The notes beneath the pieces are model-generated. The model was given only the letters and a program-made list of their open reading frames with translations, was not told where the DNA came from and did not search any database. From sequence record NC_025447.1: 64,000 nt of DNA; one strand, 5' to 3'. Source of the DNA: Escherichia phage 121Q. Below, one piece after another: positions 1,404-16,710 of the stretch (within the stretch, counting starts at the first letter, position 1; each line of letters starts with the position of its first letter). The position numbers were made by a program, and so were the translations under genes.

Positions 1404-1763
1404 ATGAAGAGTTATATAAAATTAATAGCACTTGTGTGTGCATTATTTTCATGTTTTAGTTATGGTGCAGCAGCAGAAACATATTGTCGTAGTACTAAGG
1501 GAACGTGGCATGTATTGACTAACGACCCTAGAAATGGTAAAAATATAGTTGTTGATGGTGTGATTTATCGTTTTAAAGTAGAAAGTATTATCGGTAATAA
1601 AAAAATCTCGACTTATAGAGATGATTCTGGTACATTAGCAAACGTAATATTAATTGTAGACCCAAGAACTGGTAATGGTGATATCTATATAGTAATTTAC
1701 TTGGACTCATCGGTACGCCGTGACCTAGATATAGATAAATTGAACTTACACTGTGAAATATAG
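1404..1763 (+). CDS. secreted small protein, Cys-pair family
   Basis: SD AGAGG; N-terminal signal peptide; one Cys just after the signal and one Cys 3 aa from the C-terminus. Confidence 0.65.
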   Translation: MKSYIKLIALVCALFSCFSYGAAAETYCRSTKGTWHVLTNDPRNGKNIVVDGVIYRFKVESIIGNKKISTYRDDSGTLANVILIVDPRTGNGDIYIVIYLDSSVRRDLDIDKLNLHCEI

Positions 1764-1774
1764 GACTTAAAAAA

Positions 1775-2152
1775 ATGGTAAACACTATTTTACTTTTGTT
1801 GTTGAATATTCCAATTATTCTGTCTTTTTTAATTTCTATTTTTATGGCAGGATATTGTTTAGTTGCAGTAATTCATTTCATTTTAACAAACAAATATGTC
1901 CTAATTTCTAAGCTTGATTCTATTTTTGCTTGCGATTCGATTGCTTATAACTTGTGGTTAATTTGTTCTTGCATTATGGGAGTAACTTTCCTTCTGCATG
2001 TATTTGATGTCCTTGACCAAAAGTTCGTATACATCAGTACTGGATTGGCTCTTTATCCTGCTACGTGGTACTTGATTTACGTTGGTGATATATGGTATAG
2101 TACTTATAAAGAATATCAGTACAAGAAATCACTTAACGTTGGAGGAAAATAA
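1775..2152 (+). CDS. membrane protein
   Basis: 125-aa hydrophobic ORF in same-strand gene block; weak SD. Confidence 0.5.
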   Translation: MVNTILLLLLNIPIILSFLISIFMAGYCLVAVIHFILTNKYVLISKLDSIFACDSIAYNLWLICSCIMGVTFLLHVFDVLDQKFVYISTGLALYPATWYLIYVGDIWYSTYKEYQYKKSLNVGGK

Positions 2153-2154
2153 TC

Positions 2155-2505
2155 ATGAAAATTATTTTATTTTTTGTATGTATGTTAATGTGTGGATTGT
2201 CATATGCTGAACCATTGGAAGGTTTAGTTTGTACAGATGGTAATATTAAACATATCTATCAAGGTGATAGTGACGATAGAGATATTGTATATATTGATGG
2301 ACAATCATATACGTTTGTTAAAGAGCATACAGTAGGCGACATTAGCTTCACTGAGTTTTCTAACGACACAGACCCTAACTTCTTAGCGTTTATTGAAGTA
2401 GATGTATATGAAGATAGTAATGGTACACAATATGCTAAATTAGTTATGATGCGTCGTGGTGCTAAAGAAACTAGTTTTGGTGGCTTGTGTAAATATAAGG
2501 ATTGA
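2155..2505 (+). CDS. secreted small protein, Cys-pair family
   Basis: SD GGAGGA; signal peptide; Cys after signal and Cys 4 aa from end. Confidence 0.65.
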   Translation: MKIILFFVCMLMCGLSYAEPLEGLVCTDGNIKHIYQGDSDDRDIVYIDGQSYTFVKEHTVGDISFTEFSNDTDPNFLAFIEVDVYEDSNGTQYAKLVMMRRGAKETSFGGLCKYKD

Positions 2506-2509
2506 TATT

Positions 2510-2701
2510 ATGTTGATTTATCAAGGTGATAATATTCGTGTTATGCAGCATCCCTACTTACAAATCTTTGATGTGCAGCAGTATATGGAAGGTGATGACC
2601 CAAGAACCTATGGTCGTAAGTATGATTACTTCACTGTAAAGCAGTGTAAAAATATTAACGAAGTACGACAATTAGTTCAAGAACTTCAAAACAAAGGTTG
2701 A
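2510..2701 (+). CDS. hypothetical small protein
   Basis: ATG at 2510 with SD AAGGA 8 nt upstream (track ORF starts 2456 inside upstream gene); stop lies inside terminator stem. Confidence 0.5.
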   Translation: MLIYQGDNIRVMQHPYLQIFDVQQYMEGDDPRTYGRKYDYFTVKQCKNINEVRQLVQELQNKG

Positions 2702-2720
2702 CTTCGGTCAGCCTTTTTTG
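2696..2720 (+). terminator. intrinsic terminator, GGTTGAC-UUCG-GTCAGCC hairpin plus T-run
   Basis: 7-bp GC-rich stem with UUCG tetraloop followed by TTTTTT. Confidence 0.75.
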
Positions 2721-2755
2721 TTATAATTCTCTTAATAAATTAGAGGATTTTAATT

Positions 2756-3196
2756 ATGTATGTATATCGTTTTGAACTTAAATTTAGTTACATTGAACCT
2801 AACTTAGATCCTGCACGAACTGTAGGTCCGTTTGCACGGTATTCAACCAGATACAGTACTAAAAATGGATTTGACCGTTTGCTCATGACTACACCTTCTC
2901 AATTCCAACCTGAACCAACTGAGGATGGGATCTATTCAATCAAAAGTGGATGGGTATTTGGCTGTCAAAGTTTGAAAGATTTGTTCAGATTCTTCACTAT
3001 GGACTTAGGTAAATTGCATCGTGCTGGGTTTGCTATATCTGTATATGAAGTTCCAGACCACCATGTAGACATTGGTCGTAATCAGGTTCAGTACTATTGC
3101 GGTAGTGCTAAATTAGTTCGTATCATGTCAGTTAAGGAAGCAAAGGATGAGTTCCGACAAAGTAAAAGAGAAACACATGAGGTAATATATGGATAA
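2756..3196 (+). CDS. hypothetical protein
   Basis: 146-aa ORF, SD AGAGGA upstream. Confidence 0.6.
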   Translation: MYVYRFELKFSYIEPNLDPARTVGPFARYSTRYSTKNGFDRLLMTTPSQFQPEPTEDGIYSIKSGWVFGCQSLKDLFRFFTMDLGKLHRAGFAISVYEVPDHHVDIGRNQVQYYCGSAKLVRIMSVKEAKDEFRQSKRETHEVIYG

Positions 3197-3533
3197 AACT
3201 CAAATAGAATTAAAGAAATTTGTTTCATTCTATCTTCCTGATGACCCACGTAATTCACAAAAAGATATTGAATATTATAATATCCTATCTAAACAGTTAA
3301 TGAGAAAGTTTCAACAGTGTTTAACTATATTCAATACAGATGGAAGACGTAGATACCGAATCGTTTCAATGAATGATGAAAACGCAAATTTCTTTGATTA
3401 CGATGTGGTTTTTAGAGCATATAATGATGATCGTATAAAATTAAATTATGATCAAATTATACTTGACCTGAATGTTATATGTGTTATAATCACTCACGTA
3501 GCCGAACTTAATGGTTTTAAAGAATGGTATTGA
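3189..3533 (+). CDS. hypothetical protein
   Basis: 114-aa ORF, SD GAGGT, start overlaps upstream stop. Confidence 0.6.
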   Translation: MDKTQIELKKFVSFYLPDDPRNSQKDIEYYNILSKQLMRKFQQCLTIFNTDGRRRYRIVSMNDENANFFDYDVVFRAYNDDRIKLNYDQIILDLNVICVIITHVAELNGFKEWY

Positions 3534-3547
3534 ATAAAGGATAACAT

Positions 3548-3814
3548 ATGAAGCTTAAATTACAATATAATGGATTTACTTTACGTAATGATACTGAATT
3601 TATTAATCGTTCTCCTGGTGCTGAACTGTTTTTACGAGAGATGAACATTCCTTTCATCATTACTACAGTGGGCGACCGTGAAGTTCTACAATACGCAGAG
3701 CATCCGATCATTGATGTTCCTTGGTACTCTGAGCATATGTACATGGATATGGCACGTCGCTACAACTGTAAGTTCGTAGTTGAAGGTGATAAAATTACAG
3801 TCGAATTTAAATAA
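3548..3814 (+). CDS. hypothetical protein
   Basis: 88-aa ORF, SD AAGGA. Confidence 0.6.
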   Translation: MKLKLQYNGFTLRNDTEFINRSPGAELFLREMNIPFIITTVGDREVLQYAEHPIIDVPWYSEHMYMDMARRYNCKFVVEGDKITVEFK

Positions 3815-3825
3815 GGTAAATTAAA

Positions 3826-4119
3826 ATGATCAGTACTTCAGTTAATGAAAGCATCGTCGCTGACGTAGAAATGGTTAAAGAATGTGCAGATGAAACTCTT
3901 CGTGATATGTACATTAATGATTTAATTACTGAATACGGTAGTCGTGGTGTACACGAATTTATTCGTTTAAGTGGAGAGTTGATGAAAAATCGAATTCGTA
4001 TGAAGCTTAACGTACATCCAAAAGCATGGGCATTTACATTAAAATACGCAGAAGATATTGTGAATTTGCGTCGAACTGAAGTATATGAACGTTTACACAA
4101 TGGTATGTTAGATAAATGA
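3826..4119 (+). CDS. hypothetical protein
   Basis: 97-aa ORF, SD AAGGT. Confidence 0.6.
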   Translation: MISTSVNESIVADVEMVKECADETLRDMYINDLITEYGSRGVHEFIRLSGELMKNRIRMKLNVHPKAWAFTLKYAEDIVNLRRTEVYERLHNGMLDK

Positions 4120-4128
4120 TTGTAAAAT

Positions 4129-4156
4129 AGGAATTCTTAAATGAATTCCTTTTTGT
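4129..4156 (+). terminator. intrinsic terminator
   Basis: AGGAATTC-n6-GAATTCCT hairpin followed by TTTTT. Confidence 0.7.
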
Positions 4157-4171
4157 TTATAAGGTATAGTA

Positions 4172-4393
4172 ATGAAATATATAGTACTTGTACTGATATT
4201 ATTCAGTACTGTTGTAAGTGCTAAACAAAAAGAATATGTTAAATGTATAAATTACGAAGAGAAATATGTTGAAACATATAAAAAAAGTATAATTAAAAAC
4301 GTTTCTATTACTGACCGAGGAACAATCATTGTACTTAAAAATGGGTTAATTATGTTATATAAACCACACGTTAAATGTGAAATTATTAATTGA
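4172..4393 (+). CDS. secreted small protein, Cys-pair family
   Basis: signal peptide; Cys shortly after signal and Cys 5 aa from end. Confidence 0.6.
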   Translation: MKYIVLVLILFSTVVSAKQKEYVKCINYEEKYVETYKKSIIKNVSITDRGTIIVLKNGLIMLYKPHVKCEIIN

Positions 4394-4400
4394 GGAAATT

Positions 4401-4973
4401 ATGAATCGTAAAGGTCGTTTTAAAGTATCAAAAAAGAACAAAAGTTCTAGGTTTAAACCTATTGTTTTAACAGTTAAATCTAACAAAGATTTAACTGCAC
4501 TTAGTAAAAAGATAATTTCATCTAAGATTGAAGTATCATACGTAAATTCATTAAAATATATGAATGTCAAACCACTGGACCAACTCATTTCACTTATATT
4601 TGAACGTAATGATTTTGAGATATCAGTAGATGATTATAGAGCCTATAATGCTGGTTTCATTAATGTTACTTGTAATAAAAAACTAACTGAGTTGGAAAAT
4701 TTGTCATGTATAATAAATCTAGATAAAGGTGTTGTGAAGTACCATTTTGTACATTTCACTAATATCAATAATGGAATGGGTGTACAATCCAGACCTATAG
4801 TGCCTACGTGTGATGTTACTAAATTAGCAAAGCTCAATGATGAAGAATATTTTCAAGAAAGCATTGTAACTGAGCATTTAGATGATATAATAGCTACTTA
4901 CAAAGAATGCATATGGGTGTTGAATGCTATAAAACCTAAATTGTGTTTAATGAATATTGTTCGTGATTTATGA
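4401..4973 (+). CDS. hypothetical protein
   Basis: ATG at 4401 with SD GAGGA (track start 4377 is GTG inside upstream gene). Confidence 0.6.
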   Translation: MNRKGRFKVSKKNKSSRFKPIVLTVKSNKDLTALSKKIISSKIEVSYVNSLKYMNVKPLDQLISLIFERNDFEISVDDYRAYNAGFINVTCNKKLTELENLSCIINLDKGVVKYHFVHFTNINNGMGVQSRPIVPTCDVTKLAKLNDEEYFQESIVTEHLDDIIATYKECIWVLNAIKPKLCLMNIVRDL

Positions 4974-4986
4974 ATGGGGAATCGTA

Positions 4987-5430
4987 ATGAGTTGGGTAAA
5001 TGTTAATAGTATTGAACTTAACGAACAAGATATTTTTGCATTTGTAAATTTAACTAATAACACAGTACTAAAAGGGCGTTTGTTCAGTGCTAGTGATGGG
5101 TACAAATGGATCTCTTTGATGGATGATAGTGGTGTGATTTATAATGTAATGCAATTACCCCAATGGGTATATAGTAACACTGCTGACGATGTTCTTACCG
5201 CAGTTATGCGTGAGTTTGAAAAACTCCCAGGTGGTGATATCAAAAACAAAGTTTTTAATGCAGAACGTAAAAATTATACAGCACAGCAATTGGAATCCCT
5301 TGCCATTGCTGCTTATCAAGCTGCTATTAAGAAGCCAGAGTGCGTTATTCTTAAGTATGTACCAGACTTAAAACTTACGTTGGAAGACATGGATGCATTC
5401 ATTTTTACATCTGAACTTGAACAGTACTAA
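4987..5430 (+). CDS. hypothetical protein
   Basis: ATG at 4987 with SD GGGGA; track start 4957 is TTG. Confidence 0.55.
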   Translation: MSWVNVNSIELNEQDIFAFVNLTNNTVLKGRLFSASDGYKWISLMDDSGVIYNVMQLPQWVYSNTADDVLTAVMREFEKLPGGDIKNKVFNAERKNYTAQQLESLAIAAYQAAIKKPECVILKYVPDLKLTLEDMDAFIFTSELEQY

Positions 5431-5502
5431 TTTAACTTTGGGACAACCATTCTTATTATGATATAATGTTTTATGTCATTCGATATAAATGACAACGGAA
5501 CT

Positions 5503-5510
5503 ATAAATAT
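5503..5510 (+). promoter_or_regulatory. T4-type late promoter box TATAAATA
   Basis: exact TATAAATA about 35 nt upstream of the 5546 start codon. Confidence 0.55.
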
Positions 5511-5545
5511 TATAGTAAAATTTATCTCTTATAGGAGTTATAAAA

Positions 5546-5929
5546 ATGGTTGATAAATGGAATAAGAAAGATCCATCACATGATGTTGATATTTCTGGTC
5601 TAGACAATGCACATAAGCACAAGTATCTAGATTCACTAGGTCTTCTAAAACCAGACCAAAGTCTTGCACATGATCGTCCATCCCGTGAAAAAGCATTTAG
5701 CCTAGAATCACTAGGTCATGAGCTTAATCGTGTGTTTGAGGATCACCCAATCTATGTACGTGATATTATCGAGAAACTTAAAGTAACTCCTAAAGAGCAC
5801 TTTAAAGCAACTGTACACTCTGCATTCCGTGCATTACATGAATCTCTAAAGAAAACTCACAATCTTCGTAAAATTCATGATGAAATCGTGAATGCAATCG
5901 AAAGTGAAAAACATAAGTTCAAGAAGTAA
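5546..5929 (+). CDS. hypothetical late protein, charged (possible virion internal protein)
   Basis: SD AGGAG; late-promoter box upstream; Lys/His-rich; shares KYLDSLGLL motif with next large gene. Confidence 0.65.
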   Translation: MVDKWNKKDPSHDVDISGLDNAHKHKYLDSLGLLKPDQSLAHDRPSREKAFSLESLGHELNRVFEDHPIYVRDIIEKLKVTPKEHFKATVHSAFRALHESLKKTHNLRKIHDEIVNAIESEKHKFKK

Positions 5930-5935
5930 TAAAAA

Positions 5936-5962
5936 GGGTTGACTAAGGTCAGCCCTTTGTTG
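5936..5962 (+). terminator. intrinsic terminator (GGGTTGAC-n4-GTCAGCCC)
   Basis: hairpin followed by CTTTGTTG. Confidence 0.6.
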
Positions 5963-5997
5963 TATCATAACTTCTCAATATAACTGAGGTATCATAT

Positions 5998-6111
5998 ATG
6001 CAAGGTTTAAAATTTGTAGTTGCTGCACTCATCGCCGCAGTACTGGTTGGTGGTGTATTCTATGTAGTGGATCAAAAAGTAAATCCACCTGCACAAGAAC
6101 AATCTAAGTAA
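5998..6111 (+). CDS. small single-TM peptide (37 aa)
   Basis: not in ORF track (under 60 aa); SD TGAGGT 7 nt upstream of ATG; hydrophobic core; bracketed by two terminators. Confidence 0.45.
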   Translation: MQGLKFVVAALIAAVLVGGVFYVVDQKVNPPAQEQSK

Positions 6112-6119
6112 CAAAATAA

Positions 6120-6145
6120 GGTTGACTTCGGTCAGCCTTTTCTTT
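6120..6145 (+). terminator. intrinsic terminator, UUCG-loop hairpin
   Basis: GGTTGACTTCGGTCAGCC followed by TTTTCTTT. Confidence 0.7.
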
Positions 6146-6149
6146 ATAC

Positions 6150-6157
6150 TATAAATA
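6150..6157 (+). promoter_or_regulatory. T4-type late promoter box TATAAATA
   Basis: exact TATAAATA about 18 nt upstream of ATG 6175. Confidence 0.55.
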
Positions 6158-6174
6158 TAGACATAGAGAAAAAA

Positions 6175-7686
6175 ATGAAATCTATGGAGAGAAATCAAAT
6201 GCCAAGTAATTTTACTGATAAAAATGGTGGTAACATGGCTGGTCACTCTGATAAATGGAGTGAACGCAACCGCCGTCCAAATAGTTATCAAGCAGGTCAA
6301 GGTTCACGTGGGTCACGTAACCAAGGAACTGGTCTAGCTGGTAAAGCAAACGCAGAAGCAGGTGAAGTTAAGAGTACTGAGAACATGACTGAGCTAGAAA
6401 AGCTACGTTATGTTAACTCATTAGGTCTTCTTAACGCAACACAAAAACAACGCCTTGCTGATATGGAACGTGCTGAGAAAGAACAAGCAGTTCCTAAAGA
6501 AGAACCAAAAGCAGAAGTACCTAAAGCTGCTAACCCTGTTAAAGAGTTATCAGATAACTTAGGTAAGATCTTTGCTAACAAACCACAGTTGATTCAGGGT
6601 ATTGTCAAAGCACTACAGGCAGTTCCTAAAGAAGAACTCAAAGGTAAAGCACAAGCTGTACTTGATGTAATGAAAGGTAATAAGAGCACTGAACCAACTG
6701 AAGTATTCAGTACTATCATGCGTGCACTTGAAGGTACACACAAAGAAGATTCCAAAGAACCTGAACAGGGTGAAGCAAGTCTTGATGGTATTCTTAAAAC
6801 TTTTGATAATATTGGTAAAGCAGACCGTGCTAATGCCCAGCAAGTCAAGAATGTACTGGCTAAACTTGAAAACCGTTTAGAAGGTAAAGACGATAAGGTT
6901 AAGCTCGTATCAGATGCAGTTAACAGTGCACTTAAATCTTATGTACAAGGTGAGAAAAGTCGCTTCGTAACAGCTATGGATGCTGCATTCAACACTATGA
7001 AAAAGTATGAAGCAGAACATGGTGAGAAGGTAACACCAGATGGTTATCTAAAGCGTGCAGATGAAGAGGGTGCAGTTGAACAGAAAGATGTTGAGCCTGA
7101 GCAAGAAGAAATACCTGATACCGTTGATATGGATGGATACATTCATCGTCCTGAGATGGAAGAGTTTGGGTCAGATAAAGAAGGTTTTGAACATGCAATG
7201 GCAGTATATAAAGCATTAGTTAAAAATCCAGATTATGCTAACCGTTTTGTTGACGAGTTTGATAGTGCATGGAATAACTACAAAGAGAAAGGTTATGACT
7301 TCCCTGCTGAAGCTGCATTCTTTGAACTTGGTAAACTATTAGCTAAACATGGAATTGACGTTGGTTCATCTGATTCCGAAGGTATGGAAGAAGAACATCT
7401 TGAAATGACCGATAAATCAATTCATGAACTTCAAAAGCTAATGATGTGGATATCCGAGATTGGCAAAAAAGCAGGTGCTGATCGTAAAAGTATCAACAAA
7501 AACATTAGTTGGATTAAAGATAATGTTGGTAACAATGCTCGTAAACTTCAAAAGGCGTGGGCTGATTTAGTAAATGGTGCAGATGATGTTGACATTGAAT
7601 CACCAGAAGCATATGAGTATGCACTAACTACACTTGATAACTCATTCAAAGAGTACGACAGTGGTGTTGGAAAGGATAAAAAATAA
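6175..7686 (+). CDS. large charged hypothetical late protein (503 aa)
   Basis: long ORF behind late-promoter box; Glu/Lys-rich; N-terminal RYVNSLGLL motif shared with 5546 gene. Confidence 0.7.
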   Translation: MKSMERNQMPSNFTDKNGGNMAGHSDKWSERNRRPNSYQAGQGSRGSRNQGTGLAGKANAEAGEVKSTENMTELEKLRYVNSLGLLNATQKQRLADMERAEKEQAVPKEEPKAEVPKAANPVKELSDNLGKIFANKPQLIQGIVKALQAVPKEELKGKAQAVLDVMKGNKSTEPTEVFSTIMRALEGTHKEDSKEPEQGEASLDGILKTFDNIGKADRANAQQVKNVLAKLENRLEGKDDKVKLVSDAVNSALKSYVQGEKSRFVTAMDAAFNTMKKYEAEHGEKVTPDGYLKRADEEGAVEQKDVEPEQEEIPDTVDMDGYIHRPEMEEFGSDKEGFEHAMAVYKALVKNPDYANRFVDEFDSAWNNYKEKGYDFPAEAAFFELGKLLAKHGIDVGSSDSEGMEEEHLEMTDKSIHELQKLMMWISEIGKKAGADRKSINKNISWIKDNVGNNARKLQKAWADLVNGADDVDIESPEAYEYALTTLDNSFKEYDSGVGKDKK

Positions 7687-7697
7687 ACATTTAAAAG

Positions 7698-7722
7698 GTT
7701 GACTTCGGTCAACCTTTTTTTG
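7698..7722 (+). terminator. intrinsic terminator, UUCG-loop hairpin
   Basis: GGTTGAC-TTCG-GTCAACC perfect stem then TTTTTTT. Confidence 0.8.
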
Positions 7723-7757
7723 TAAATATAAAAGAGGAATTAAGAAGAGGGATTACA

Positions 7758-8009
7758 ATGAAAAAATATATTATATTTGGAATTGTATTATTTTCCAGTA
7801 CTAGTTATGGTGCAGATTATCATTGCTCCGTAGCAAGACAGGATTTCAGAAATGGGGATTTCTATACCACTTCATACACAAAAGGAATAATACACGACAT
7901 CGACACAACTATTGGATTTAATGCATTTGATAACAAAGATTCATATACTTCAGGTATACTATCTGAGCGTAAGACTGATGTAATGGGAATAGAAAAAGAG
8001 TTCCGGTGA
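7758..8009 (+). CDS. secreted small protein
   Basis: SD AGAGGG; signal peptide; Cys just after signal. Confidence 0.55.
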   Translation: MKKYIIFGIVLFSSTSYGADYHCSVARQDFRNGDFYTTSYTKGIIHDIDTTIGFNAFDNKDSYTSGILSERKTDVMGIEKEFR

Positions 8010-8019
8010 TTCAGTAGCA

Positions 8020-8343
8020 ATGTGCAATGACATTGAAAGTACTAAAACAATTTATTATAATAATGAACGTAATTATCGTTTTCATAATTTAACCACAAAT
8101 AAAAGTTTACTATTTTACAATTGTAAAGAAGTAAAACTCCCACCCGACAATAGCTGTAACCCGACGAACCCATCACCAGCACAATGTAATACTCAATCTG
8201 AACCTGATAACAATAAAAAAGACAAAGATAAAGATAAAAAAGAAGACAAAAAACCTTTAAAAGATAAAAAGAAAGATAAAAAACCTAATCCGTTTAAAAA
8301 TAATAAACCAGCACAACCCGATATGACGTGTAAAATAAAATAA
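8020..8343 (+). CDS. low-complexity Lys/Asp-rich protein (possibly continuation of 7758 gene)
   Basis: weak SD; KDKDKK repeats; C-terminal Cys 4 aa from end as in the Cys-pair family. Confidence 0.4.
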   Translation: MCNDIESTKTIYYNNERNYRFHNLTTNKSLLFYNCKEVKLPPDNSCNPTNPSPAQCNTQSEPDNNKKDKDKDKKEDKKPLKDKKKDKKPNPFKNNKPAQPDMTCKIK

Positions 8344-8352
8344 GGATATATA

Positions 8353-8772
8353 ATGAAAAAGATTTTTTTAAGTATTATTTTAGTACTTTTTAGTTTTAAT
8401 GTATATGCAGCAGATGCTAAACAGGTTGCAAATACAGTAAAAGATGTTATAGTAGATAATGCTCCTACATTAGAGGAAATTGGGGTAAAAACTTGTGATA
8501 TTGTAATATATAATTTAGTTAATGATGAACGAGTTATGTTGAATACGTATGAACAAGTAGTCCCATTGGTTGAATCTGGTGATGCTTTTAGCTTTACATA
8601 TAAAGTTAAATTAACAGGAGGGGTTGAAGTTAATCTTGACATTGATACCGCTTCAGTACTAAAAGATAAACTAGGATATGTGTTCAATCGTATTCGTGAA
8701 GAAGGTCATCTTAAGTATGTTTATGAAAGTAAAATACTAAAACGTGCAATAGTTATAGAAAACTGTAAATGA
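8353..8772 (+). CDS. secreted small protein, Cys-pair family
   Basis: SD AAGGA; signal peptide; Cys near C-terminus. Confidence 0.65.
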   Translation: MKKIFLSIILVLFSFNVYAADAKQVANTVKDVIVDNAPTLEEIGVKTCDIVIYNLVNDERVMLNTYEQVVPLVESGDAFSFTYKVKLTGGVEVNLDIDTASVLKDKLGYVFNRIREEGHLKYVYESKILKRAIVIENCK

Positions 8773-8780
8773 TAATAAAA

Positions 8781-8806
8781 GGGTTGACTTCGGTCAGCCT
8801 TTTTTG
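8781..8806 (+). terminator. intrinsic terminator, UUCG-loop hairpin
   Basis: GGGTTGACTTCGGTCAGCC then TTTTTTG. Confidence 0.8.
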
Positions 8807-9826: not shown

Positions 9827-9828
9827 AA

Positions 9829-10167: not shown

Positions 10168-10170
10168 GGA

Positions 10171-10518: not shown

Positions 10519-10519
10519 T

Positions 10520-10864: not shown

Positions 10865-10873
10865 GAGACATAT

Positions 10874-11128
10874 ATGTTTGCGTTGCGTAATAAAAACACT
10901 AAAGAATTATTATGTATTGATACCGTATGGGATTGTGCGGGTTCAACTACAGTTCTTGAAGAAGGAACTGGATATTGCGTGTTTGTTGTACATGATAGGA
11001 ATGAACTCGAATTATTACTTGCTGAGTTCAATGCTGGTGGTAATCCTAACAGTACTGAATACCCTGAGATTATCAATCCAGCACCTCCAGGTTCATATGA
11101 AATCCTACCACTATGGGTGTTGAAATAA
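10874..11128 (+). CDS. hypothetical protein
   Basis: 84-aa ORF with SD AGGAG. Confidence 0.55.
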   Translation: MFALRNKNTKELLCIDTVWDCAGSTTVLEEGTGYCVFVVHDRNELELLLAEFNAGGNPNSTEYPEIINPAPPGSYEILPLWVLK

Positions 11129-11508
11129 TGCGACAAATGTACAAAGTAACCGAGCTAAACAAGCGTCTGGTTAAACAATCTATGTTTGAGGATAAAGAGT
11201 CTTACTATAACTTTAAACGTGCTGTAGAGGCTGCTATCCACATTCAGAAGCTTAAAGAACGTGGTTGTATTATTCTGGAAAATGGTTCGGAAGTTGTAAC
11301 GGATGACTTTAGTGTAGCGTTTGATGTTTCACCTGATGGGACGCTATCAATGCCCCGCTTAGGAACTGGAAACATGACTGTTTGGGTTGGCTTCACTATG
11401 GGGAATGTACCTGGTACTGTGTACGTAGATGATGCGGAATTGAAAGACAGTTTCAAAAACTTATCTTATCTTGAACCACAATACGCACATGAAATGAATT
11501 TATTTTGA
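11128..11508 (+). CDS. hypothetical protein
   Basis: ATG overlapping upstream TAA (TAATG); track start 11113. Confidence 0.5.
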   Translation: MRQMYKVTELNKRLVKQSMFEDKESYYNFKRAVEAAIHIQKLKERGCIILENGSEVVTDDFSVAFDVSPDGTLSMPRLGTGNMTVWVGFTMGNVPGTVYVDDAELKDSFKNLSYLEPQYAHEMNLF

Positions 11509-11509
11509 G

Positions 11510-11537
11510 TTGACAAACACATTCAGTACTGTATAAT
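11510..11537 (+). promoter_or_regulatory. sigma70-like early promoter TTGACA-N16-TATAAT followed by stem-loop
   Basis: TTGACA at 11510, TATAAT at 11532, then GGGGATGA/TCATCCCC hairpin and SD GAGGA. Confidence 0.65.
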
Positions 11538-11584
11538 GCTTATCAAGGGGATGAACTTCTCATCCCTACAATCGAGGAACTACC

Positions 11585-12139
11585 ATGATTACTTTTAAGA
11601 AAACTGCTAACCACATCCATGAAATCTACATTAACGGTCATAAAGCTGGCCTTCTTCGTTTACTCGCCCATCACCCTGATGCTACCGTATCTGATAATGA
11701 ACCTAAAGATTGGCGTGTCTTTTTCTTTGGAAAGTACAGTGATTTTCAAGTATCAAACCTGAAGAACATTCGTTCAGTATGCACGTTAACTGAAATTAAA
11801 GAAAAGTTAGCACAAGCATTGAAAACTAATCCAGATGGTGTTCTTCCACCTGATAACTTTGTAGAGAAAGGTTATGCCTTAGCTCATTTCAAAGATGGTA
11901 CTATTCAATCTATCAGTACTGAATATGAATATCATTGGACTGAGTACTTCACTTATGGTTCGAGTAATACATTGATGGATTCACGTAGTAAATTGGAAGA
12001 AGTACTGACTCGTATGAATGAACGCGAGCGTCAGTTATATGACAAACCAGAAATGTGGAGTTCAACTTACATTGACCGTATTGACTATGTTATTATGACT
12101 CCAATCTTTGACACTGCTTACTATGATTCTTTGAAATAA
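11585..12139 (+). CDS. hypothetical protein
   Basis: 184-aa ORF downstream of promoter/stem-loop cassette. Confidence 0.65.
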   Translation: MITFKKTANHIHEIYINGHKAGLLRLLAHHPDATVSDNEPKDWRVFFFGKYSDFQVSNLKNIRSVCTLTEIKEKLAQALKTNPDGVLPPDNFVEKGYALAHFKDGTIQSISTEYEYHWTEYFTYGSSNTLMDSRSKLEEVLTRMNERERQLYDKPEMWSSTYIDRIDYVIMTPIFDTAYYDSLK

Positions 12140-12150
12140 GGATAACTTAT

Positions 12151-12327
12151 ATGAAACTACGTACTCGTAATCGACTGATGGATGCACTGTACCATGAACA
12201 GCTTTCACTGAATGAAGTGAAGCGTCAGTTAATGTACACATATCAGTTTCCCGCTCGCATTGCAAAACAACGTGCTAAAGAATTGCTGAAAGAAGCAATC
12301 GAGTACTGGGAATCTGATTCGTACTAA
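12151..12327 (+). CDS. hypothetical small protein (58 aa)
   Basis: not in ORF track; SD AAGGA 7 nt upstream of ATG; fills otherwise empty gap. Confidence 0.5.
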   Translation: MKLRTRNRLMDALYHEQLSLNEVKRQLMYTYQFPARIAKQRAKELLKEAIEYWESDSY

Positions 12328-12366
12328 TATTACGTGATATGTCACGTTAATTAAGTGAGGCGATAA

Positions 12367-12618
12367 ATGAAAATATTATTAGTTCTAATACTACTAATAG
12401 TTTTACCATTTACTTTAGTATCCCCTGGACTTGCATGGAATGTATTTGTGTACTTAGTATGTACTATTGTAGTAAATGGTATCTTGTTCTTAGTTCTATT
12501 CATAAATGGAATAGGACACGGTGGAGGATGGACCAGTACTGCTGATATTGTACATAAAACCACTATGTCTTTATTTGTAATGTGGAATTTGTTCTGGACT
12601 TGGTTTGTGTTCTTCTAA
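12367..12618 (+). CDS. membrane protein
   Basis: SD GTGAGG; hydrophobic TM-like segments. Confidence 0.6.
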   Translation: MKILLVLILLIVLPFTLVSPGLAWNVFVYLVCTIVVNGILFLVLFINGIGHGGGWTSTADIVHKTTMSLFVMWNLFWTWFVFF

Positions 12619-12626
12619 TTAAAAAT

Positions 12627-12998
12627 ATGAATATAGATTTGAAAGGTGCAACACGAACTGTTATCCTCATTGGGGAATATGCTATCAAGATTCCAACCTT
12701 TAAAAGTTGGAAGCTATTCTTAACAGGGATGATAGCTAACCTCAATGAACGTTCGTGGATGCAGTACTCCAATCGTAGTGATAGTAGTATCTGTCCTACG
12801 TTGTGGTCATCATGTACTGGACTAGTAACTGTACAGAAACGTTGTAAGCCAGTGCAACATAGGGGTTTATTTTGGGTGGAGTTGTGTGCATTAGCATCTA
12901 AATCAGAGTTGAGTACTGACTTCTTCTATTCAGATGCGAAGCCAGAAAACTTTGGGTATCTGGGTGGTAAGTTAGTTAAACTTGATTATGGAGATTAA
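12627..12998 (+). CDS. protein kinase-like protein (short)
   Basis: contains YAIK lysine motif, SDAKPEN catalytic-loop-like motif and KLDYG; start uncertain (GTG 12582 or ATG 12627). Confidence 0.5.
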   Translation: MNIDLKGATRTVILIGEYAIKIPTFKSWKLFLTGMIANLNERSWMQYSNRSDSSICPTLWSSCTGLVTVQKRCKPVQHRGLFWVELCALASKSELSTDFFYSDAKPENFGYLGGKLVKLDYGD

Positions 12999-12999
12999 T

Positions 13000-13269
13000 A
13001 TGTACGCACTGTATAATAAAGAAAAGAAACGATTTGCTAAGGTTGAAATTTCGATTGATACATTTGATATGTTGGAGTACTGTATTGTAACTGACCTATA
13101 TGCTAACTTGTATTACGTTCTTGATGACGTATCAGTACTGCAACGATTGCTTGAGAATTCCAAAAGTCAATGCCAGGGCATCCATGATGGTTCATCTTAT
13201 GAAACACCTGAGTGTTCCTACGGCTATCTGGACGGGTATGAGATTGTGAAGTTGGGGATCATTGAATAA
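13000..13269 (+). CDS. hypothetical protein, shares C-terminal motif with kinase-like family
   Basis: SD GGAG; C-terminal YGYLDGYEIVKLG resembles C-termini of 12627 and 55314 proteins. Confidence 0.5.
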   Translation: MYALYNKEKKRFAKVEISIDTFDMLEYCIVTDLYANLYYVLDDVSVLQRLLENSKSQCQGIHDGSSYETPECSYGYLDGYEIVKLGIIE

Positions 13270-13275
13270 AGAAAA

Positions 13276-13301
13276 GGGTTGACTTCGGTCAGCCCTTTTT
13301 G
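13276..13301 (+). terminator. intrinsic terminator, UUCG-loop hairpin
   Basis: GGGTTGACTTCGGTCAGCCC then TTTTT. Confidence 0.8.
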
Positions 13302-13308
13302 CTATAAT
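13279..13308 (+). promoter_or_regulatory. promoter embedded in terminator (TTGACT-N18-TATAAT)
   Basis: TTGACT is part of the terminator stem; TATAAT at 13303; SD GAGAGGA before denV. Confidence 0.5.
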
Positions 13309-13336
13309 TATTTCATCAAGACGAGAGGATGAATAC

Positions 13337-13852
13337 ATGACACGCATTAACTTAGTACACGTTAAAGAACTTGCTGACCAACATCTGATGGCTGAATATC
13401 GTGAACTCCCACGTGTATTTGGTGCTGTACAAAAACACGTTCAAGCACGTAAGCGTGTACGTGATTTCAAAATTAATAGTACTTATCTGTTAGGTTCAGG
13501 TCATGTGACATTCTTTTACGACAAGTTATTGTACTTACAGAAGCGTCATATTGATATTGTCAACGAATGTCTGCGTCGTGGTATGAAGATTCAAAACACT
13601 GAAGTAAACGACATTAGCGGCTTCCCTGCTGAGTTTTGTAATGACTACGTACCAACGGAGTCAGAGATTAAAATGTCTCGTGATCGTTTGATTGAGAAGC
13701 TCCAGATGAAGCCTACGTGGTATAAGTTTACTGATGTTGAATGTCCACAGTACGTTAAAGATATGCAGAACGTAAGTAGTAAGAACGAATCTAGTACTGA
13801 TATGTTCGACGAAATTGAAGAACAAATCAAAGATGAAATGAATAATTATTAA
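13337..13852 (+). CDS. denV: endonuclease V, pyrimidine-dimer DNA glycosylase/AP lyase
   Basis: N-terminal [30 protein letters not shown] and later [15 protein letters not shown] blocks match T4 endonuclease V; about 30-aa acidic C-terminal extension. Confidence 0.9.
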
Positions 13853-13890
13853 AGGAAAGGGTTGACTTCGGTTACACAAAGGAACATAAC

Positions 13891-14085
13891 ATGTTATTAG
13901 TATATTCAACGCGTTTCTGGATTTCTTTTATTGTACTATCGCTAATCGGCTTCGGTTTGAGTATACTCTTTTCGTGGGATGAATTGGGTACATGGTATTA
14001 TGAAGTCCCGTGGTACATGAAGATAGCTCCTTGTTATGCGGCATTGTTCGTGTCATTCCTTATTGTTGTCTTCAGCGAGGATTAG
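13891..14085 (+). CDS. small membrane protein
   Basis: SD AAAGGAA; two hydrophobic segments. Confidence 0.5.
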   Translation: MLLVYSTRFWISFIVLSLIGFGLSILFSWDELGTWYYEVPWYMKIAPCYAALFVSFLIVVFSED

Positions 14086-14136
14086 TTGATGTAGTATGTG
14101 CTACACCAAAGTATTTGGATATTTTAGATATAAACA

Positions 14137-14165
14137 TTGACACCTGTTATATCTTTCTGTATTAT
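14137..14165 (+). promoter_or_regulatory. sigma70-like promoter TTGACA-N17-TATTAT
   Basis: TTGACA at 14137, TATTAT at 14160, SD TGAGGA before ATG 14192. Confidence 0.5.
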
Positions 14166-14191
14166 GTACATCACCAAATGAGGAATACAAC

Positions 14192-14551
14192 ATGGCATCT
14201 TTAAGTGAAATCGCAGAATACAACCCACTAACAATCTCAACAATTCAACGTACAAAAACTTTTTATTTCCGTCCTGCTGATGGATGGAAACGTGGAATGA
14301 ATGGTGACTATCGAGTACTGGAAGATTCACTAATCGAGCGTATCAACTCTGAACTACAGAAGTATGAAGGTGTTAAAGTTGTGCGTTCAACTTCTCGTTA
14401 TTTTGAGTACTACATTGAGTCTTCAACTGTAAATGAAAACTCATCATTCTCGGTGGACAACACTGATATTCTTCGTAATGCAGTTGGTCTGTTATGCAAC
14501 ATTGCAGAAGAAATGGGCTTAACTATTACTACTATGAGTGAATTAGAATAA
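14192..14551 (+). CDS. hypothetical protein
   Basis: 119-aa ORF with SD and upstream promoter. Confidence 0.6.
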   Translation: MASLSEIAEYNPLTISTIQRTKTFYFRPADGWKRGMNGDYRVLEDSLIERINSELQKYEGVKVVRSTSRYFEYYIESSTVNENSSFSVDNTDILRNAVGLLCNIAEEMGLTITTMSELE

Positions 14552-14557
14552 CATAAA

Positions 14558-14583
14558 GGGTTGACTTCGGTCAGCCCTTTTTG
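14558..14583 (+). terminator. intrinsic terminator, UUCG-loop hairpin (doubles as -35 of next promoter)
   Basis: GGGTTGACTTCGGTCAGCCC-TTTTT followed by GCTATAAT. Confidence 0.8.
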
Positions 14584-14616
14584 CTATAATTATTTCATCA
14601 ACACAAGAGGTAACAA

Positions 14617-14856
14617 ATGAAACTATCTTTTATACGATTAGCTGAATTCTTCGGTACTGATATCATTACTTTACAACAAATTGCAGACAATACTTCATTA
14701 AGTATACAAGAAGTACTTGACTTAGATGTAATTCAGTGCGATAATACTTCAATCGATTTCAAAGAAGGTCTTGTCGAAAAAGATAAGATTCAGGCTAAGA
14801 TTAATGGTGCTGGACGGGTTCAGTACTGGAAAGGTATATTATCAAATTCAATTTGA
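14617..14856 (+). CDS. hypothetical protein
   Basis: 79-aa ORF, SD AGAGGT. Confidence 0.55.
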   Translation: MKLSFIRLAEFFGTDIITLQQIADNTSLSIQEVLDLDVIQCDNTSIDFKEGLVEKDKIQAKINGAGRVQYWKGILSNSI

Positions 14857-14899
14857 AATTTTTTGTTATTCATCATATGATAATGAATGGGAACCATAA

Positions 14900-16363
14900 A
14901 TGTATAAAGTATATCGTTCAATTGAAGTTGAAAATGCATTAAGCTTGGCAAAAAGTGAAGAAGCATTTAGAATTTCGTTATTCATTCTTCGTGAAAAGCA
15001 TCCACAATTGCCAATTCCTGATTCATTTGATCAATTGGAGCAGGATACTAATACAGAATGTGATGAAAGTCTGTTGGGATTAATTCGAAATCCAAAGACC
15101 AAAGCTAAGTTCTATCTTAAAATTTGTAAAATTTGTGCAAATGATGTTCAATTGCATGGTTTGGGTGTGTATATTATTGCACAATCGTCATATTTGAATT
15201 CAATAATTCCATGTGGTTGTAGTGAGATACCAAAATGGACTCGTTATCAATATATTATTCGAATAGAAAGAAAAATTTCAAAAACTGGAAAGAAATTATT
15301 ATCAATACCAACTGGTATAATTAAAAGTAATACATATAAACCAACTCTTGTATGTGAACATCACCCAGATGAACTCATGAACAGTGCAACTATAAATGGT
15401 ATTTTATTTGGTTCGAATGGTACAAATGATGGATGTGTTAAATGTGGGAATGAAAGAAAGAAACAGTATCATCGTGAAAGTAATAACGGATTGGAAAATC
15501 ACATTAACGAAATAATGAATACTGGTAAGTTTCATCCAAAGACCACGTTCAAGCGTAGTGATACAGTTAATGATTATGGGAGATTTAGTAAACTTGTATA
15601 CTCATGTCCAATTTGTGCAAACGATGAATATACAAAAAATGGTTTATGTACTGGTGAATTTGAGCAAGAAATGCACACACTCAAACAGGGGCATTTAAGT
15701 TGTCGCTGTACTGGCGGGTTTCGTTGGACAAAAGAACAGCGTGAATATCAAATTAAAAAAGAATTATGTAATCGCTCAACTGATGAAGTGATGTTTACAT
15801 TTATTGGCTGGGACGGTGAATACACTAATTCCCGTAGTGTGTTTTTATATTCACGTAGTGATAGTTCAATTCAACAAAAAATTAATATTGCAGATTTTTT
15901 CAGTTTTGAATATGGTTTTTCAATGTATAATGAGTACGGGTTTAAGAAAAACAAACCTACACGTTCATATATGAACGTTGATCAAACAAACGAATCGGAT
16001 AAATTCGGAATAACCCAACAGGGTAACAGTATCAAACCCCGACTTAAAAAAATTAACAAATCTTTTTTAGAAGAGTATGGTGTTGATAATTTTTGGACTA
16101 ATGTATTAGTTATTTTTTTTCACACCGAAGAAGGGGGATTTTTGGCATCGGAGTTGGAAACACAAGTCCATACTGTTGCATTGTGTGGAAAACCACATAA
16201 AAATATTGGCTATTATAAAAGAGGTGATGGTTATACTGAAACATACAACAACATACATCGTCAAAATGTAATTGAAGTAATAAAACAATTCTTAGCCAAA
16301 CATGAAGGTGAGTACATTATTGAACGTGATATTAATGGTATTTTTGGTGAAGTAATTTTATAA
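14900..16363 (+). CDS. Cys-rich hypothetical protein (487 aa) with duplicated C-x2-C-A-N-D module
   Basis: long ORF; two copies of CxICAND...C(x)C zinc-binding-like module; no GIY-YIG or HNH motif seen. Confidence 0.7.
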   Translation: MYKVYRSIEVENALSLAKSEEAFRISLFILREKHPQLPIPDSFDQLEQDTNTECDESLLGLIRNPKTKAKFYLKICKICANDVQLHGLGVYIIAQSSYLNSIIPCGCSEIPKWTRYQYIIRIERKISKTGKKLLSIPTGIIKSNTYKPTLVCEHHPDELMNSATINGILFGSNGTNDGCVKCGNERKKQYHRESNNGLENHINEIMNTGKFHPKTTFKRSDTVNDYGRFSKLVYSCPICANDEYTKNGLCTGEFEQEMHTLKQGHLSCRCTGGFRWTKEQREYQIKKELCNRSTDEVMFTFIGWDGEYTNSRSVFLYSRSDSSIQQKINIADFFSFEYGFSMYNEYGFKKNKPTRSYMNVDQTNESDKFGITQQGNSIKPRLKKINKSFLEEYGVDNFWTNVLVIFFHTEEGGFLASELETQVHTVALCGKPHKNIGYYKRGDGYTETYNNIHRQNVIEVIKQFLAKHEGEYIIERDINGIFGEVIL

Positions 16364-16383
16364 AATAAAAGAGGTTAATTAAA

Positions 16384-16710
16384 ATGAAAAAGTTAATGTT
16401 AGTTATGTTAATGTGTTTATCAACAACAGTGAATGCAAAAAATGAATCATCAACTACTTGTAAATCTTCAAAAACTGATACGATTTATCAACTGTATTTG
16501 GATGTTTCAACAAAAACTGCTAAAATTGATGGAAAGAAATTTATGTTCGAAAGTCAAGAAGTTTTTAAAGACGGGAGTGGTTCATATACTATTTTTTCAA
16601 ATGATAAATTAAATCAAAAATTAAAAGTTTTTGTTATAAAACCAAATAAGATAAAATATATAATTACCTATAATGGTAAAAATATTGATATGGGTAATTG
16701 TGTGTATTAA
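16384..16710 (+). CDS. secreted small protein, Cys-pair family
   Basis: signal peptide, Cys after signal, Cys 3 aa from end. Confidence 0.65.
   Translation: MKKLMLVMLMCLSTTVNAKNESSTTCKSSKTDTIYQLYLDVSTKTAKIDGKKFMFESQEVFKDGSGSYTIFSNDKLNQKLKVFVIKPNKIKYIITYNGKNIDMGNCVY

Follow-up and report, generated by a model that had tools for sequence, protein, structure and literature searches.

A 64,000-nucleotide stretch of Escherichia phage 121Q (the window), an Asteriusvirus (PBECO4/121Q-like) jumbo phage of 350 kb with Escherichia coli as its host, carries a set of real, fast-evolving, nonvirion accessory genes that encode small exported proteins. The eight open reading frames (ORFs) listed in the first-pass annotation, here named by their start positions (1404, 2155, 4172, 7758, 8020, 8353, 16384, and 45006), are all present on the plus strand at the coordinates given there (Table 1), and the secreted-protein genes lie within about 17 kb, plus one at 45 kb. 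Seven of the ORFs begin with a signal peptide. The products would be Sec-exported proteins of about 6 to 13 kDa, and both that could be modeled were predicted to be all-β. Their export, disulfide bond, early timing, and function are what we infer from the evidence below.

Table 1. Secreted-protein genes, neighboring genes, and predicted regulatory elements in the window
Feature	Position	Strand	Description
Perfect σ70 consensus promoter	925..952	+	TTGACA-16-TATAAT; ahead of the 999-2701 block; consensus match only
Multi-pass membrane protein	999..1325	+	ORF directly upstream of 1404; 59% identity between clades
Group A barrel 1	1404..1763	+	119 aa; signal peptide about 21 aa; mature Cys7, Cys96 of 98
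Multi-pass membrane protein	1775..2152	+	abuts 2155 (stop 2152, 2155 start); 44% identity between clades
Group A barrel 2	2155..2505	+	116 aa; mature Cys8, Cys94 of 98
Terminator hairpin also carrying a -35 box (cassette)	2693..2716	+	closes the 999-2701 block; G17 terminator at the equivalent place
Singleton mini protein	4172..4393	+	73 aa; mature Cys8, Cys52 of 56
Terminator/promoter cassette	7693..7718	+	upstream of the 7758-8020-8353 unit
Split gene, signal peptide and N-terminal group B-like domain	7758..8009	+	83 aa; one mature Cys
Split gene, C-terminal part	8020..8343	+	107 aa; five Cys; tail rich in K/D/P; C terminus MTCKIK; lacks a signal peptide
Singleton secreted protein	8353..8772	+	139 aa; mature Cys29, Cys119 of 120
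Terminator/promoter cassette	8782..8799	+	closes the 7758-8020-8353 unit; G17 annotates a terminator here
Group A barrel 3	16384..16710	+	108 aa; mature Cys8, Cys88 of 90; in a variable cassette
Terminator/promoter cassette	16727..16744	+	directly after 16384
Group B barrel	45006..45305	+	99 aa; mature Cys12, Cys79 of 80

Signal peptides and the cysteine pair

By rule-based inspection, each signal peptide starts with M-K(K) and continues with a hydrophobic core of 10 to 14 residues and an AXA-type site, with cleavage placed at SYG/AAA (1404), SYA↓E (2155), VSA↓K (4172), SYG↓A (7758), VYA↓A (8353), VNA↓K (16384), and VNA↓S (45006). The tripartite features of Sec export and signal peptidase I processing, namely, a basic n-region, a hydrophobic h-region, and small residues at -3 and -1, are found by the same rules. 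When every ATG-initiated ORF of 45 aa or more in the window was passed through a crude rule-based scan, all seven were recovered, and the remaining matches were either multi-pass membrane proteins or implausible ORFs (short or on the opposite strand). Both inspection and scans thus bear out the N-terminal signal peptides proposed earlier as canonical Sec-type sequences, and the property is kept in the orthologues although the signal-peptide sequence itself changes. The crude scan of the whole genome of a 352-kb close relative gave no further plausible soluble type I candidate with a C-terminal Cys. Two matches there were implausible, one being on the opposite strand and one having five Cys residues, and the others were lipobox proteins or otherwise unlikely ORFs. 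A periplasmic location is predicted from the signal-peptide features found by rule, the even number of Cys residues, and the absence of orthologues from the virion proteome of a relative.

The mature part of each complete ORF contains exactly two Cys residues (6/6), and both are retained in every homologue found, down to about 20 to 27% identity. All 5 signal-peptide ORFs that a greedy gene call retained have a Cys among their final five residues, compared with 12 of 137 other ORFs (Fisher P = 1.4e-5); 8353, which was dropped by that call, also has one, giving 6/6. The first mature Cys lies 5 to 29 residues past the cleavage site. Of the pattern claimed in the first-pass annotation, a Cys early in the mature protein and another 2 to 5 residues from the end, the second half describes all six proteins, but the first Cys of 8353, at mature position 29, falls outside it.

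In the AlphaFold model of 1404, C7 is located in the first strand (E5-9) and C96 in the last (E93-97); in that of 45006, C12 is in the first strand (E10-18) and C79 in the last (E70-79). These AF2 models, of moderate confidence and built from shallow alignments of 10 to 14 sequences, are all-β except for one 4-residue helix, and the top structural matches of both are closed barrels. In a closed meander barrel, the first and last strands adjoin. Because the only two mature Cys residues are in these two strands, the host Dsb system would close the barrel after export with a single disulfide, and the models are consistent with such a bond clamping the termini.

Family relationships and predicted folds

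The proteins had been taken for six or seven paralogs, a view that hhalign upholds for 1404, 2155, and 16384 (group A) and weakly for 45006 and 7758 (group B), but not for 4172 and 8353. In group A, 1404 and 2155 align in register with an E value of 7.5e-5, and 2155 and 16384 align with an E value of 7e-3; the invariant columns are C7, G43, Y74, and C96, and F36 and D53 are near-invariant. In group B, 45006, 7758, and an extra gene of relatives were grouped at E values of about 0.005 to 0.03, also in register, a similarity weaker than that of group A. No homology was detectable between the two groups (hhalign probability of 0.2%), and in profile comparisons neither 4172 nor 8353 matched any other member. 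Judged from these alignments, the set is not one family: there is one supported family, a weaker one, and two singletons with the same architecture.

The BFVD model of A0A1C3S646, the slurp01 orthologue of 2155, matches the 1404 model with a TM score of 0.77 and an E value of 4.9e-5, and that of A0A097EXD3 (121Q_222), the 16384 orthologue, matches it with a TM score of 0.62 and an E value of 2.6e-3. When the 1404 model was compared with BFVD, none of its top 50 matches was an orthologue of 45006, 8353, or 4172. Both modeled groups are meander barrels that match overlapping PDB entries, and the proteins would be small up-and-down β-barrels, eight-stranded in group A and six-stranded in group B. 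Sequence and fold together support group A as an 8-stranded barrel family and, more weakly, group B as a 6-stranded one, and for 4172 and 8353 the sequence pattern by itself suggests that they may be β-barrels. 4172 belongs to PHROG 31284, to which no function is assigned, and its vB_Ec-M-J orthologue has a nonconserved Cys in the signal peptide. The orthologues of 8353 are either 100% or about 41% identical, and all of them keep both Cys residues.

The earlier suggestion that 7758 joins 8020 describes the ancestral state rather than this phage. The two parts form a single ORF in Salmonella phage PHA46, with six Cys residues and the ending ...DNMCPT before the stop, so the join is ancestral. 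Here, 8020 is in the +1 frame relative to 7758, which stops with TGA at 8007-8009, and both Asteriusvirus clades share the split. The N-terminal part aligns in register with the 45006 group (hhalign E value of 4.7e-3), and the Cys residues of 8020 are all conserved in vB_Ec-M-J and PHA46. An extra group B-like gene, EcMJ_541 of vB_Ec-M-J, is found only in the other clade. In one relative, 7758 is annotated as a "lytic conversion lipoprotein," but it has no lipobox.

Divergence, virion proteome, and gene neighborhood

The secreted-protein genes are the fastest-diverging genes of the region, with a median identity of 56% versus 93% and between-clade identities of 41 to 78% versus 73 to 99% for the other genes (Mann-Whitney P = 2.7e-6). 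This could reflect relaxed constraint and not an arms race. Presence varies among close relatives as well (16384 and EcMJ_541); the 16384 counterpart is truncated in PBECO4 (P0024), and none is annotated at the equivalent position in G17. The phAPEC6 virion proteome lacks the orthologues gp047c, gp040c, gp034c, gp033c, and gp032c and contains their neighbors gp035c and gp037c (PMC7247149, its Table 1), which correspond by mapped orthology to window genes 5546-5929 and 6175-7686.

Two multi-pass membrane protein genes, 999 and 1775, alternate with 1404 and 2155, and this membrane-secreted-membrane-secreted order is kept in divergent contigs from relatives that are about 60% identical. The 999 product has no family match, the two membrane proteins show no similarity to each other, and neither matches holin, antiholin, or Imm families. 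Labels of "immunity to superinfection" on neighboring genes in a relative fall below the Pfam threshold. Promoters and terminator cassettes appear to bracket the secreted-protein genes into σ70-type units (Table 1), and such promoters would suggest early rather than late expression.

Comparison with known systems

None of the proteins matched an exclusion, inhibitor, or defense family in Pfam, PHROGs, NCBIfam, or PADLOC. T5 Llp is a small, early, β-rich protein of the periplasmic space with a C11-C58 disulfide in 62 residues; its second Cys is five residues from the end, and Llp needs this bond to block FhuA from its periplasmic side (bioRxiv 10.64898/2026.03.26.714494). We checked these Cys positions against the Llp sequence. 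Structures are available for Llp (PDB 7QJF and 8A60), which is taken here together with the Cor proteins. 4172 (C8-C52 of 56) comes close to Llp in both size and Cys spacing, and the Cys positions and predicted strands of 1404 and 45006 would fit an N-to-C disulfide in a β-rich domain of this kind. Llp and Cor, however, have a lipobox with an acylated Cys at +1, whereas all seven proteins here have AXA-type signal peptidase I sites. No sequence similarity to Llp was found for 4172 (BLASTP E value of 1.8, shuffle z of 0.75), and global alignments of all members with Llp gave z scores against shuffles of -1.5 to 0.75.

T4 Spackle (gp61.3) is an early protein with a cleaved export signal, a 75-residue mature form, and one intramolecular disulfide (Cys29-Cys81 as numbered in that study), and it excludes superinfecting phage in the periplasm by inhibiting the gp5 tail lysozyme (PMC7677548). 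Spackle is an α-helical bundle, whereas the proteins here are predicted to be all-β, and no sequence relation was found.

MliC/PliC proteins are periplasmic lysozyme inhibitors (Pfam PF09864; PDB 2F09, 3F6Z, 3OE3, and 4MIR). They are eight-stranded antiparallel β-barrels, as predicted for group A, and E. coli MliC has a Cys near both ends (EYQCDEK and LNNCQLQ), the same placement as in 1404, by position only. No match to PF09864 at an E value of 1 or below was found for any of the eight ORFs, and each group, compared with a three-sequence MliC/PliC alignment, gave an hhalign probability below 1%. The SxSGAxY and (Y/W)xxW(S/T)KG motifs, which insert into the lysozyme active site, are present in MliC/PliC of E. 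coli, P. aeruginosa, and Brucella and absent from the phage proteins, of which 16384 alone has a loose GSGSY. The structural matches include the periplasmic inhibitors PliC, MliC, PhiA, and ACP and a T6SS immunity protein, all at the fold level with 3 to 10% identity. The barrel fold is generic: scores as good as that of PliC are reached by outer-membrane barrels, avidins, lipocalins, and designed barrels.

Possible functions

Because of their σ70-type units, nonvirion status, and fast divergence, we tentatively favor the reading that the secreted proteins act in the periplasm by tightly binding or inhibiting a component of the envelope and so protect the infected cell. The target may be a receptor or transporter seen from the periplasmic side, or a peptidoglycan hydrolase, and the cell would be spared the entry of more phages or early damage to its envelope, as with T5 Llp and T4 Spackle. 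By analogy with these, superinfection exclusion, as proposed in the first-pass annotation, is plausible. Circumstantial pointers to exclusion are the σ70-type units, the fast divergence, the fast-evolving membrane neighbors of some of the genes, the Llp- and Spackle-like architecture, and the fold resemblance to MliC/PliC. In a bolder and doubtful version, the proteins would form a diversifying set of periplasmic mini-barrels that do the work of T4 Spackle with a β-barrel. Group A, with a fold and clamp resembling those of MliC/PliC, would plug tail-associated or secreted peptidoglycan hydrolases of competing phages, the other barrels would act like Llp and lock outer-membrane receptors on their periplasmic face, and rapid turnover, with members gained and lost, would track local phage competitors.

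The absence of detectable homology between groups A and B and of any match for 4172 and 8353, together with the BFVD comparison, would also fit a mixed set of small secreted proteins that are unrelated, do different jobs, and have no common mechanism. A disulfide between the first and last strands would then be a convergent trick that stabilizes very small periplasmic domains, and the grouping would reflect pattern rather than biology. A like clamp does occur in the unrelated MliC and T5 Llp and, in helical form, in Spackle (PMC7677548). We consider this somewhat unlikely, as the proteins are essentially the sole soluble signal-peptide proteins in 352 kb, their genes cluster and all diverge unusually fast, and both modeled groups are barrels with overlapping PDB matches. 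The conserved alternating gene order, with its abutting or overlapping stops and starts, could instead mark a lysis or envelope-maintenance module, in which barrels and membrane partners (999 with 1404, and 1775 with 2155) act as periplasmic sensors or antiholin-like regulators that time lysis, as with T4 RI, and block no incoming phage. In vB_Ec-M-J, a membrane gene overlaps EcMJ_541, and the membrane partners also evolve fast. Such a module is unlikely, given that the membrane proteins resemble neither each other nor holin, antiholin, or Imm families, that no membrane partner accompanies 4172, 16384, 45006, or the 7758-8353 unit, and that the promoters would point to early, not late, expression.

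It is less likely still that the proteins are of the immunity type and keep the infected cell intact until burst against periplasmic toxins such as T6SS amidases or muramidases, colicin M- or pesticin-like bacteriocins, or animal lysozyme: the matches to such proteins are at the fold level, the MliC motifs are absent, and PADLOC and NCBIfam gave no match. The location next to two virion protein genes would suit virion-associated or ejected proteins, but this is extremely improbable, since 0 of 5 annotated phAPEC6 orthologues are in the virion proteome (PMC7247149, its Table 1) and a virion protein assembled in the cytoplasm is not expected to start with a cleavable Sec signal peptide.

Hundreds of genes in jumbo phages of the PBECO4/121Q/RaK2 group lack an assigned function, and no superinfection-exclusion or envelope-modifying system of this group is described in the literature we examined. 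The proteins reported here make up a near-complete list of the soluble exported proteins of one jumbo-phage genome, sharing one architecture, lying outside the virion, and evolving several-fold faster than their neighbors. If the bolder version above is true, a phage would for the first time have been seen to recruit a bacterial-type barrel inhibitor fold for superinfection exclusion, and Rak2/PBECO4-like jumbo phages would have their first described exclusion system. Should group A be muramidase inhibitors or the others receptor blockers, the exclusion strategies known from Spackle and Llp/Cor would gain a new fold and a new phage group; otherwise, the proteins would be new lineage-restricted families of disulfide-clamped mini-barrels. 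For work on phage-phage or phage-envelope interactions, they provide a short list of testable candidates.

Predicted small secreted proteins with a terminal Cys pair

Bases 1-17000 of the window are 97 to 99% identical to Escherichia phages vB_EcoM_CRJP21, G17, Sharanji, PBECO4, and others, jumbo myoviruses of ~350 kb in the genus Asteriusvirus, in whose records all ORFs of the set studied here are annotated as "hypothetical protein." These genes go unmentioned in the papers that we read on Asteriusvirus phages and on spanins. The first-pass annotation had described six or seven secreted paralogs with one Cys near the start and one near the end of the mature chain. The ORFs, which we name by their start in the window, are indeed present at their coordinates. 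In each of the seven, M-K(K) is followed by a hydrophobic core of 10 to 14 residues and an AXA-type cleavage motif. When we screened every ATG ORF of the 64-kb window (≥45 aa) with crude, rule-based signal-peptide criteria, all seven were recovered; the remaining hits were multi-pass membrane proteins or implausible ORFs, either short or on the opposite strand. We also assembled the whole 352-kb genome of ECO103 4-12-1, a close relative without annotation, for comparison scans. There, the plausible small soluble type I signal ORFs with a C-terminal Cys were the orthologues of 8353, 4172, 2155, 1404, and 45006; the 7758 orthologue was also recovered, and the rest of the hits were lipobox proteins or unlikely ORFs.

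Predicted secreted ORFs and terminator/promoter cassettes in the window
Feature	Start	Strand	Cleavage motif	Mature Cys positions	Mature length (aa)
ORF 1404	1404	+	SYG/AAA	7, 96	98
ORF 2155	2155	+	SYA↓E	8, 94	98
ORF 4172	4172	+	VSA↓K	8, 52	56
ORF 7758	7758	+	SYG↓A		
ORF 8353	8353	+	VYA↓A	29, 119	120
ORF 16384	16384	+	VNA↓K	8, 88	90
ORF 45006	45006	+	VNA↓S	12, 79	80
Cassettes	2696, 5937, 6120, 7697, 8782, 13277, 14559, 16727, 48923, 52617, 55915, 57839	+			

The mature form of every complete protein has exactly two Cys residues. A Cys lies within the last five residues in 5/5 secreted ORFs of a greedy gene call versus 12/137 of the other ORFs called (Fisher p = 1.4e-5); 8353, which is absent from that call, likewise has one there. 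The pair is invariant in all homologues recovered, including metagenomic members at only ~20 to 27% identity. The Cys statistics, this invariance, and the scan results therefore establish that the combination of signal peptide and terminal Cys pair is real and non-random. The early-plus-late placement holds for the complete ORFs except 8353, in which the first Cys comes 29 residues into the mature chain.

The syntenic region of Salmonella phage PHA46 has two further small ORFs (2-334 and 917-1240 of the locus) with the same layout: N-terminal hydrophobic segment, early Cys, and a Cys 2 to 4 residues from the end. As PHA46 is a more distant jumbo phage, the two-Cys secreted design may be widespread in RaK2/PBECO4-like phages. 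ECO103 4-12-1 also encodes two candidate lipoproteins in the same accessory region; their small ORFs (15729-16004, LTAC↓N, and 16366-16617, LTAC↓D), each with a good lipobox, map ~2 kb outside the left edge of the window.

Family structure and predicted folds

Paralogy, as proposed for the whole set, was supported for part of it. In profile comparisons (hhalign) restricted to the mature parts, 1404 and 2155 align in register with an E value of 7.5e-5 (probability 62%), as do 2155 and 16384 with an E value of 7e-3, and 1404 also weakly matches the PHROG of 2155. We call these three group A. The AF2 model of mature 1404, built from a 14-sequence group A alignment, has eight strands (pLDDT 72.6, pTM 0.65). 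Independent BFVD models of the 2155 orthologue (A0A1C3S646; TM 0.77 against the 1404 model) and the 16384 orthologue (A0A097EXD3, 121Q_222; TM 0.62) confirm a common predicted fold. Group B is more weakly joined: 45006, the 7758 domain, and EcMJ_541, an extra gene found only in the other Asteriusvirus clade (clade 2, represented by vB_Ec-M-J), share 25 to 29% identity over the full length, with hhalign E values of 0.005 to 0.03 that are weak, yet in register. The AF2 model of mature 45006 (10-sequence alignment; pLDDT 81.4, pTM 0.66) has six strands. Profile comparison of group A with group B gave a probability of 0.2%, 4172 and 8353 matched no other member, and no further members emerged from HMM searches covering every ORF of the window and of ECO103. 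The set resolves into a supported family (group A), a weakly supported one (group B), and two singletons with a common architecture.

In the 1404 model, the first strand contains C7 and the last strand C96, and C12 and C79 are placed likewise in the 45006 model. The first and last strands of a closed meander barrel are hydrogen-bonded neighbours, so the modelled Cys positions fit a barrel-closing disulfide, at a Cys-Cys distance that we infer. A disulfide clamp and a periplasmic location are plausible for the secreted ORFs.

The families are very narrow, uncharacterised, and lineage-restricted. Pfam, PHROGs, NCBIfam, and PADLOC returned only PHROGs of unknown function and sub-threshold matches, some confined to the signal-peptide region. 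For 1404, only 5 clusters were found among 5.8 billion proteins, a search with a group profile gave only Asteriusvirus-type orthologues, and an exhaustive HMMER search against 1.84 billion representatives returned 21 matches. The small proteins among these are additional members, alike in signal peptide and Cys pair. The large ones, matched over multiple stretches, are repetitive, align through a hairpin motif like IDGxxYxF, and were rejected as motif resemblance; their Pfam hits include no individually significant stretch, and they resemble TcdA/cell-wall-binding repeats in the PDB only at an E value of about 0.3. The homologue search with 8353 found nothing besides 8353 itself, and a single-protein scan of IMG/VR gave one partial locus.

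Comparison with MliC/PliC, Llp, and Spackle

Escherichia coli MliC has a Cys near each domain end (EYQCDEK and LNNCQLQ), a design in common with group A. Membership of group A in the MliC family was rejected on sequence and motifs: a PF09864 search gave nothing at E ≤ 1, hhalign against MliC/PliC gave a probability of <1%, and the motifs SxSGAxY and WxKG are missing. T5 Llp is a beta-rich protein of 62 residues, the N- and C-terminal regions of which are tied by a C11-C58 disulfide that is required to block FhuA (bioRxiv 10.64898/2026.03.26.714494); we verified these positions in the Llp sequence. While 4172 is nearly equal to Llp in size and Cys spacing, it has no lipobox, and homology was rejected as sequence comparison shows no similarity. 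The label "lytic conversion lipoprotein," given to the 7758 counterpart in one relative, was not upheld, the lipobox being absent. T4 Spackle is exported and disulfide-bearing, but helical (PMC7677548).

The split gene 7758/8020

The stop of 7758 is a TGA at 8007-8009, and 8020 starts 10 nt further on in the +1 frame; 7758 has one mature Cys, and 8020 has five Cys and no signal peptide. In PHA46, the two parts are a single ORF with the order signal peptide, 7758-like domain, 8020-like Cys-rich part, and K/P-rich tail ending in DNMCPT and the stop; the join of 7758 to 8020 suggested earlier thus corresponds to the ancestral arrangement. Both of the E. coli Asteriusvirus clades that we examined have the split. 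Where members of the 7758 cluster are longer (108 to 196 aa), we read the extra length as an N-terminal extension running into the upstream gene and rejected a fusion with 8020.

At the junction (7990-8022), the +1-frame layout and TT(C/T) CGG TGA, with the rare Arg codon CGG directly before the stop, are conserved in both clades. Because about 6/9 of the substitutions in the 10-nt "spacer" are at third positions of the +1 frame, the sequence hints that the spacer is translated, as it would be in a programmed +1 frameshift. Simple re-initiation is the other possibility; eight codons upstream of the ATG, an (A/G)TG start is present in clade 2 and absent from the window's clade.

A T7 gp0.7-like protein kinase gene (8842-9483) adjoins 8353, with no tblastn hit in the syntenic 18-kb stretch of vB_Ec-M-J; in PHA46, the fused 7758/8020 homologue directly follows a gp0.7-like kinase gene.

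Transcription units and neighbouring genes

A ~35-nt cassette, consisting of a G+C-rich terminator hairpin (GGGTTGACTTCGGTCAGCCC) containing a TTGACT -35 box, then a T-run and TATAAT, recurs twelve times in the window. Judged by these elements, a single cassette appears to close one transcription unit and open the following one; the cassettes divide the region into short units, and G17 has terminators annotated at matching places. One unit, bounded by two cassettes, is 7758-8020-8353. Another block, made up of the membrane protein ORF 999, 1404, the membrane protein ORF 1775, and 2155, lies downstream of a perfect sigma-70 consensus promoter (925-952) and ends at the cassette at 2693. Duplicated membrane-plus-barrel modules were rejected because 999 and 1775 have no similarity to each other; neither matches a known family.

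Two extra small membrane genes of vB_Ec-M-J (5971-6207 and 7996-8259 of the locus) are annotated "immunity to superinfection," a label that was not upheld, as Pfam Imm_superinfect gave a below-cutoff E value of 0.014 for one and nothing for the other. The second overlaps EcMJ_541 (8256-8552). In the window, three tandem ORFs of 112 to 122 aa (9829-10864) have multi-pass membrane profiles, resemble one another at the C terminus (NIPEK, NLPER, and NMPNR), and look like paralogous membrane proteins; the one ORF tested had no family match.

Divergence between the clades

From one Asteriusvirus clade to the other, identity is 41 to 78% (median 56%) for the secreted-protein genes, versus 73 to 99% (median 93%) for the rest of the region's genes (Mann-Whitney p = 2.7e-6). 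No annotated counterpart of 16384 was found in G17; the gene is outside the window portion aligning to ECO103 and is truncated in PBECO4. A 487-aa ORF at 14900-16363 contains three stretches matching the CapR homology domain (PF21817, E = 2.6e-23); in G17, its place is taken by a different gene, of 372 aa. This ORF and 16384 form a variable cassette that is possibly mobile.

Possible roles

The phAPEC6 virion proteome bears on whether these are virion proteins, which we consider extremely improbable. Its listed proteins include gp035c and gp037c, which map to 6175-7686 and 5546-5929 of the window, and do not include gp047c, gp040c, gp034c, gp033c, and gp032c (PMC7247149 Table 1), the orthologues of 2155, 4172, 7758, 8020, and 8353, respectively. 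A lysis or envelope module acting with the adjacent membrane proteins is unlikely. The membrane-secreted-membrane-secreted order of the 999-2155 block is preserved in contigs at only ~60% identity, and the two membrane genes (999-1325 and 1775-2152; 59% and 44% identity between clades) are among the region's fastest-diverging. Immunity against toxins acting in the periplasm is rather less likely still. A purely convergent, functionally heterogeneous set is doubtful, and more probable than any of these three.

The set is best described as a small, fast-evolving repertoire of predicted Sec-exported, disulfide-clamped mini-barrels that would be expressed from host-type promoters and not packaged, a description much firmer as to structure than as to function. 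Such a profile would be expected of proteins that act where phage meets phage or phage meets envelope. In function, the closest precedents are Llp, Spackle, and MliC/PliC, each a tight binder or inhibitor in the periplasm. Because of this profile and these precedents, we tentatively favour a putative envelope-directed blocking role for the mini-barrels, such as the superinfection exclusion suggested in the first-pass annotation.
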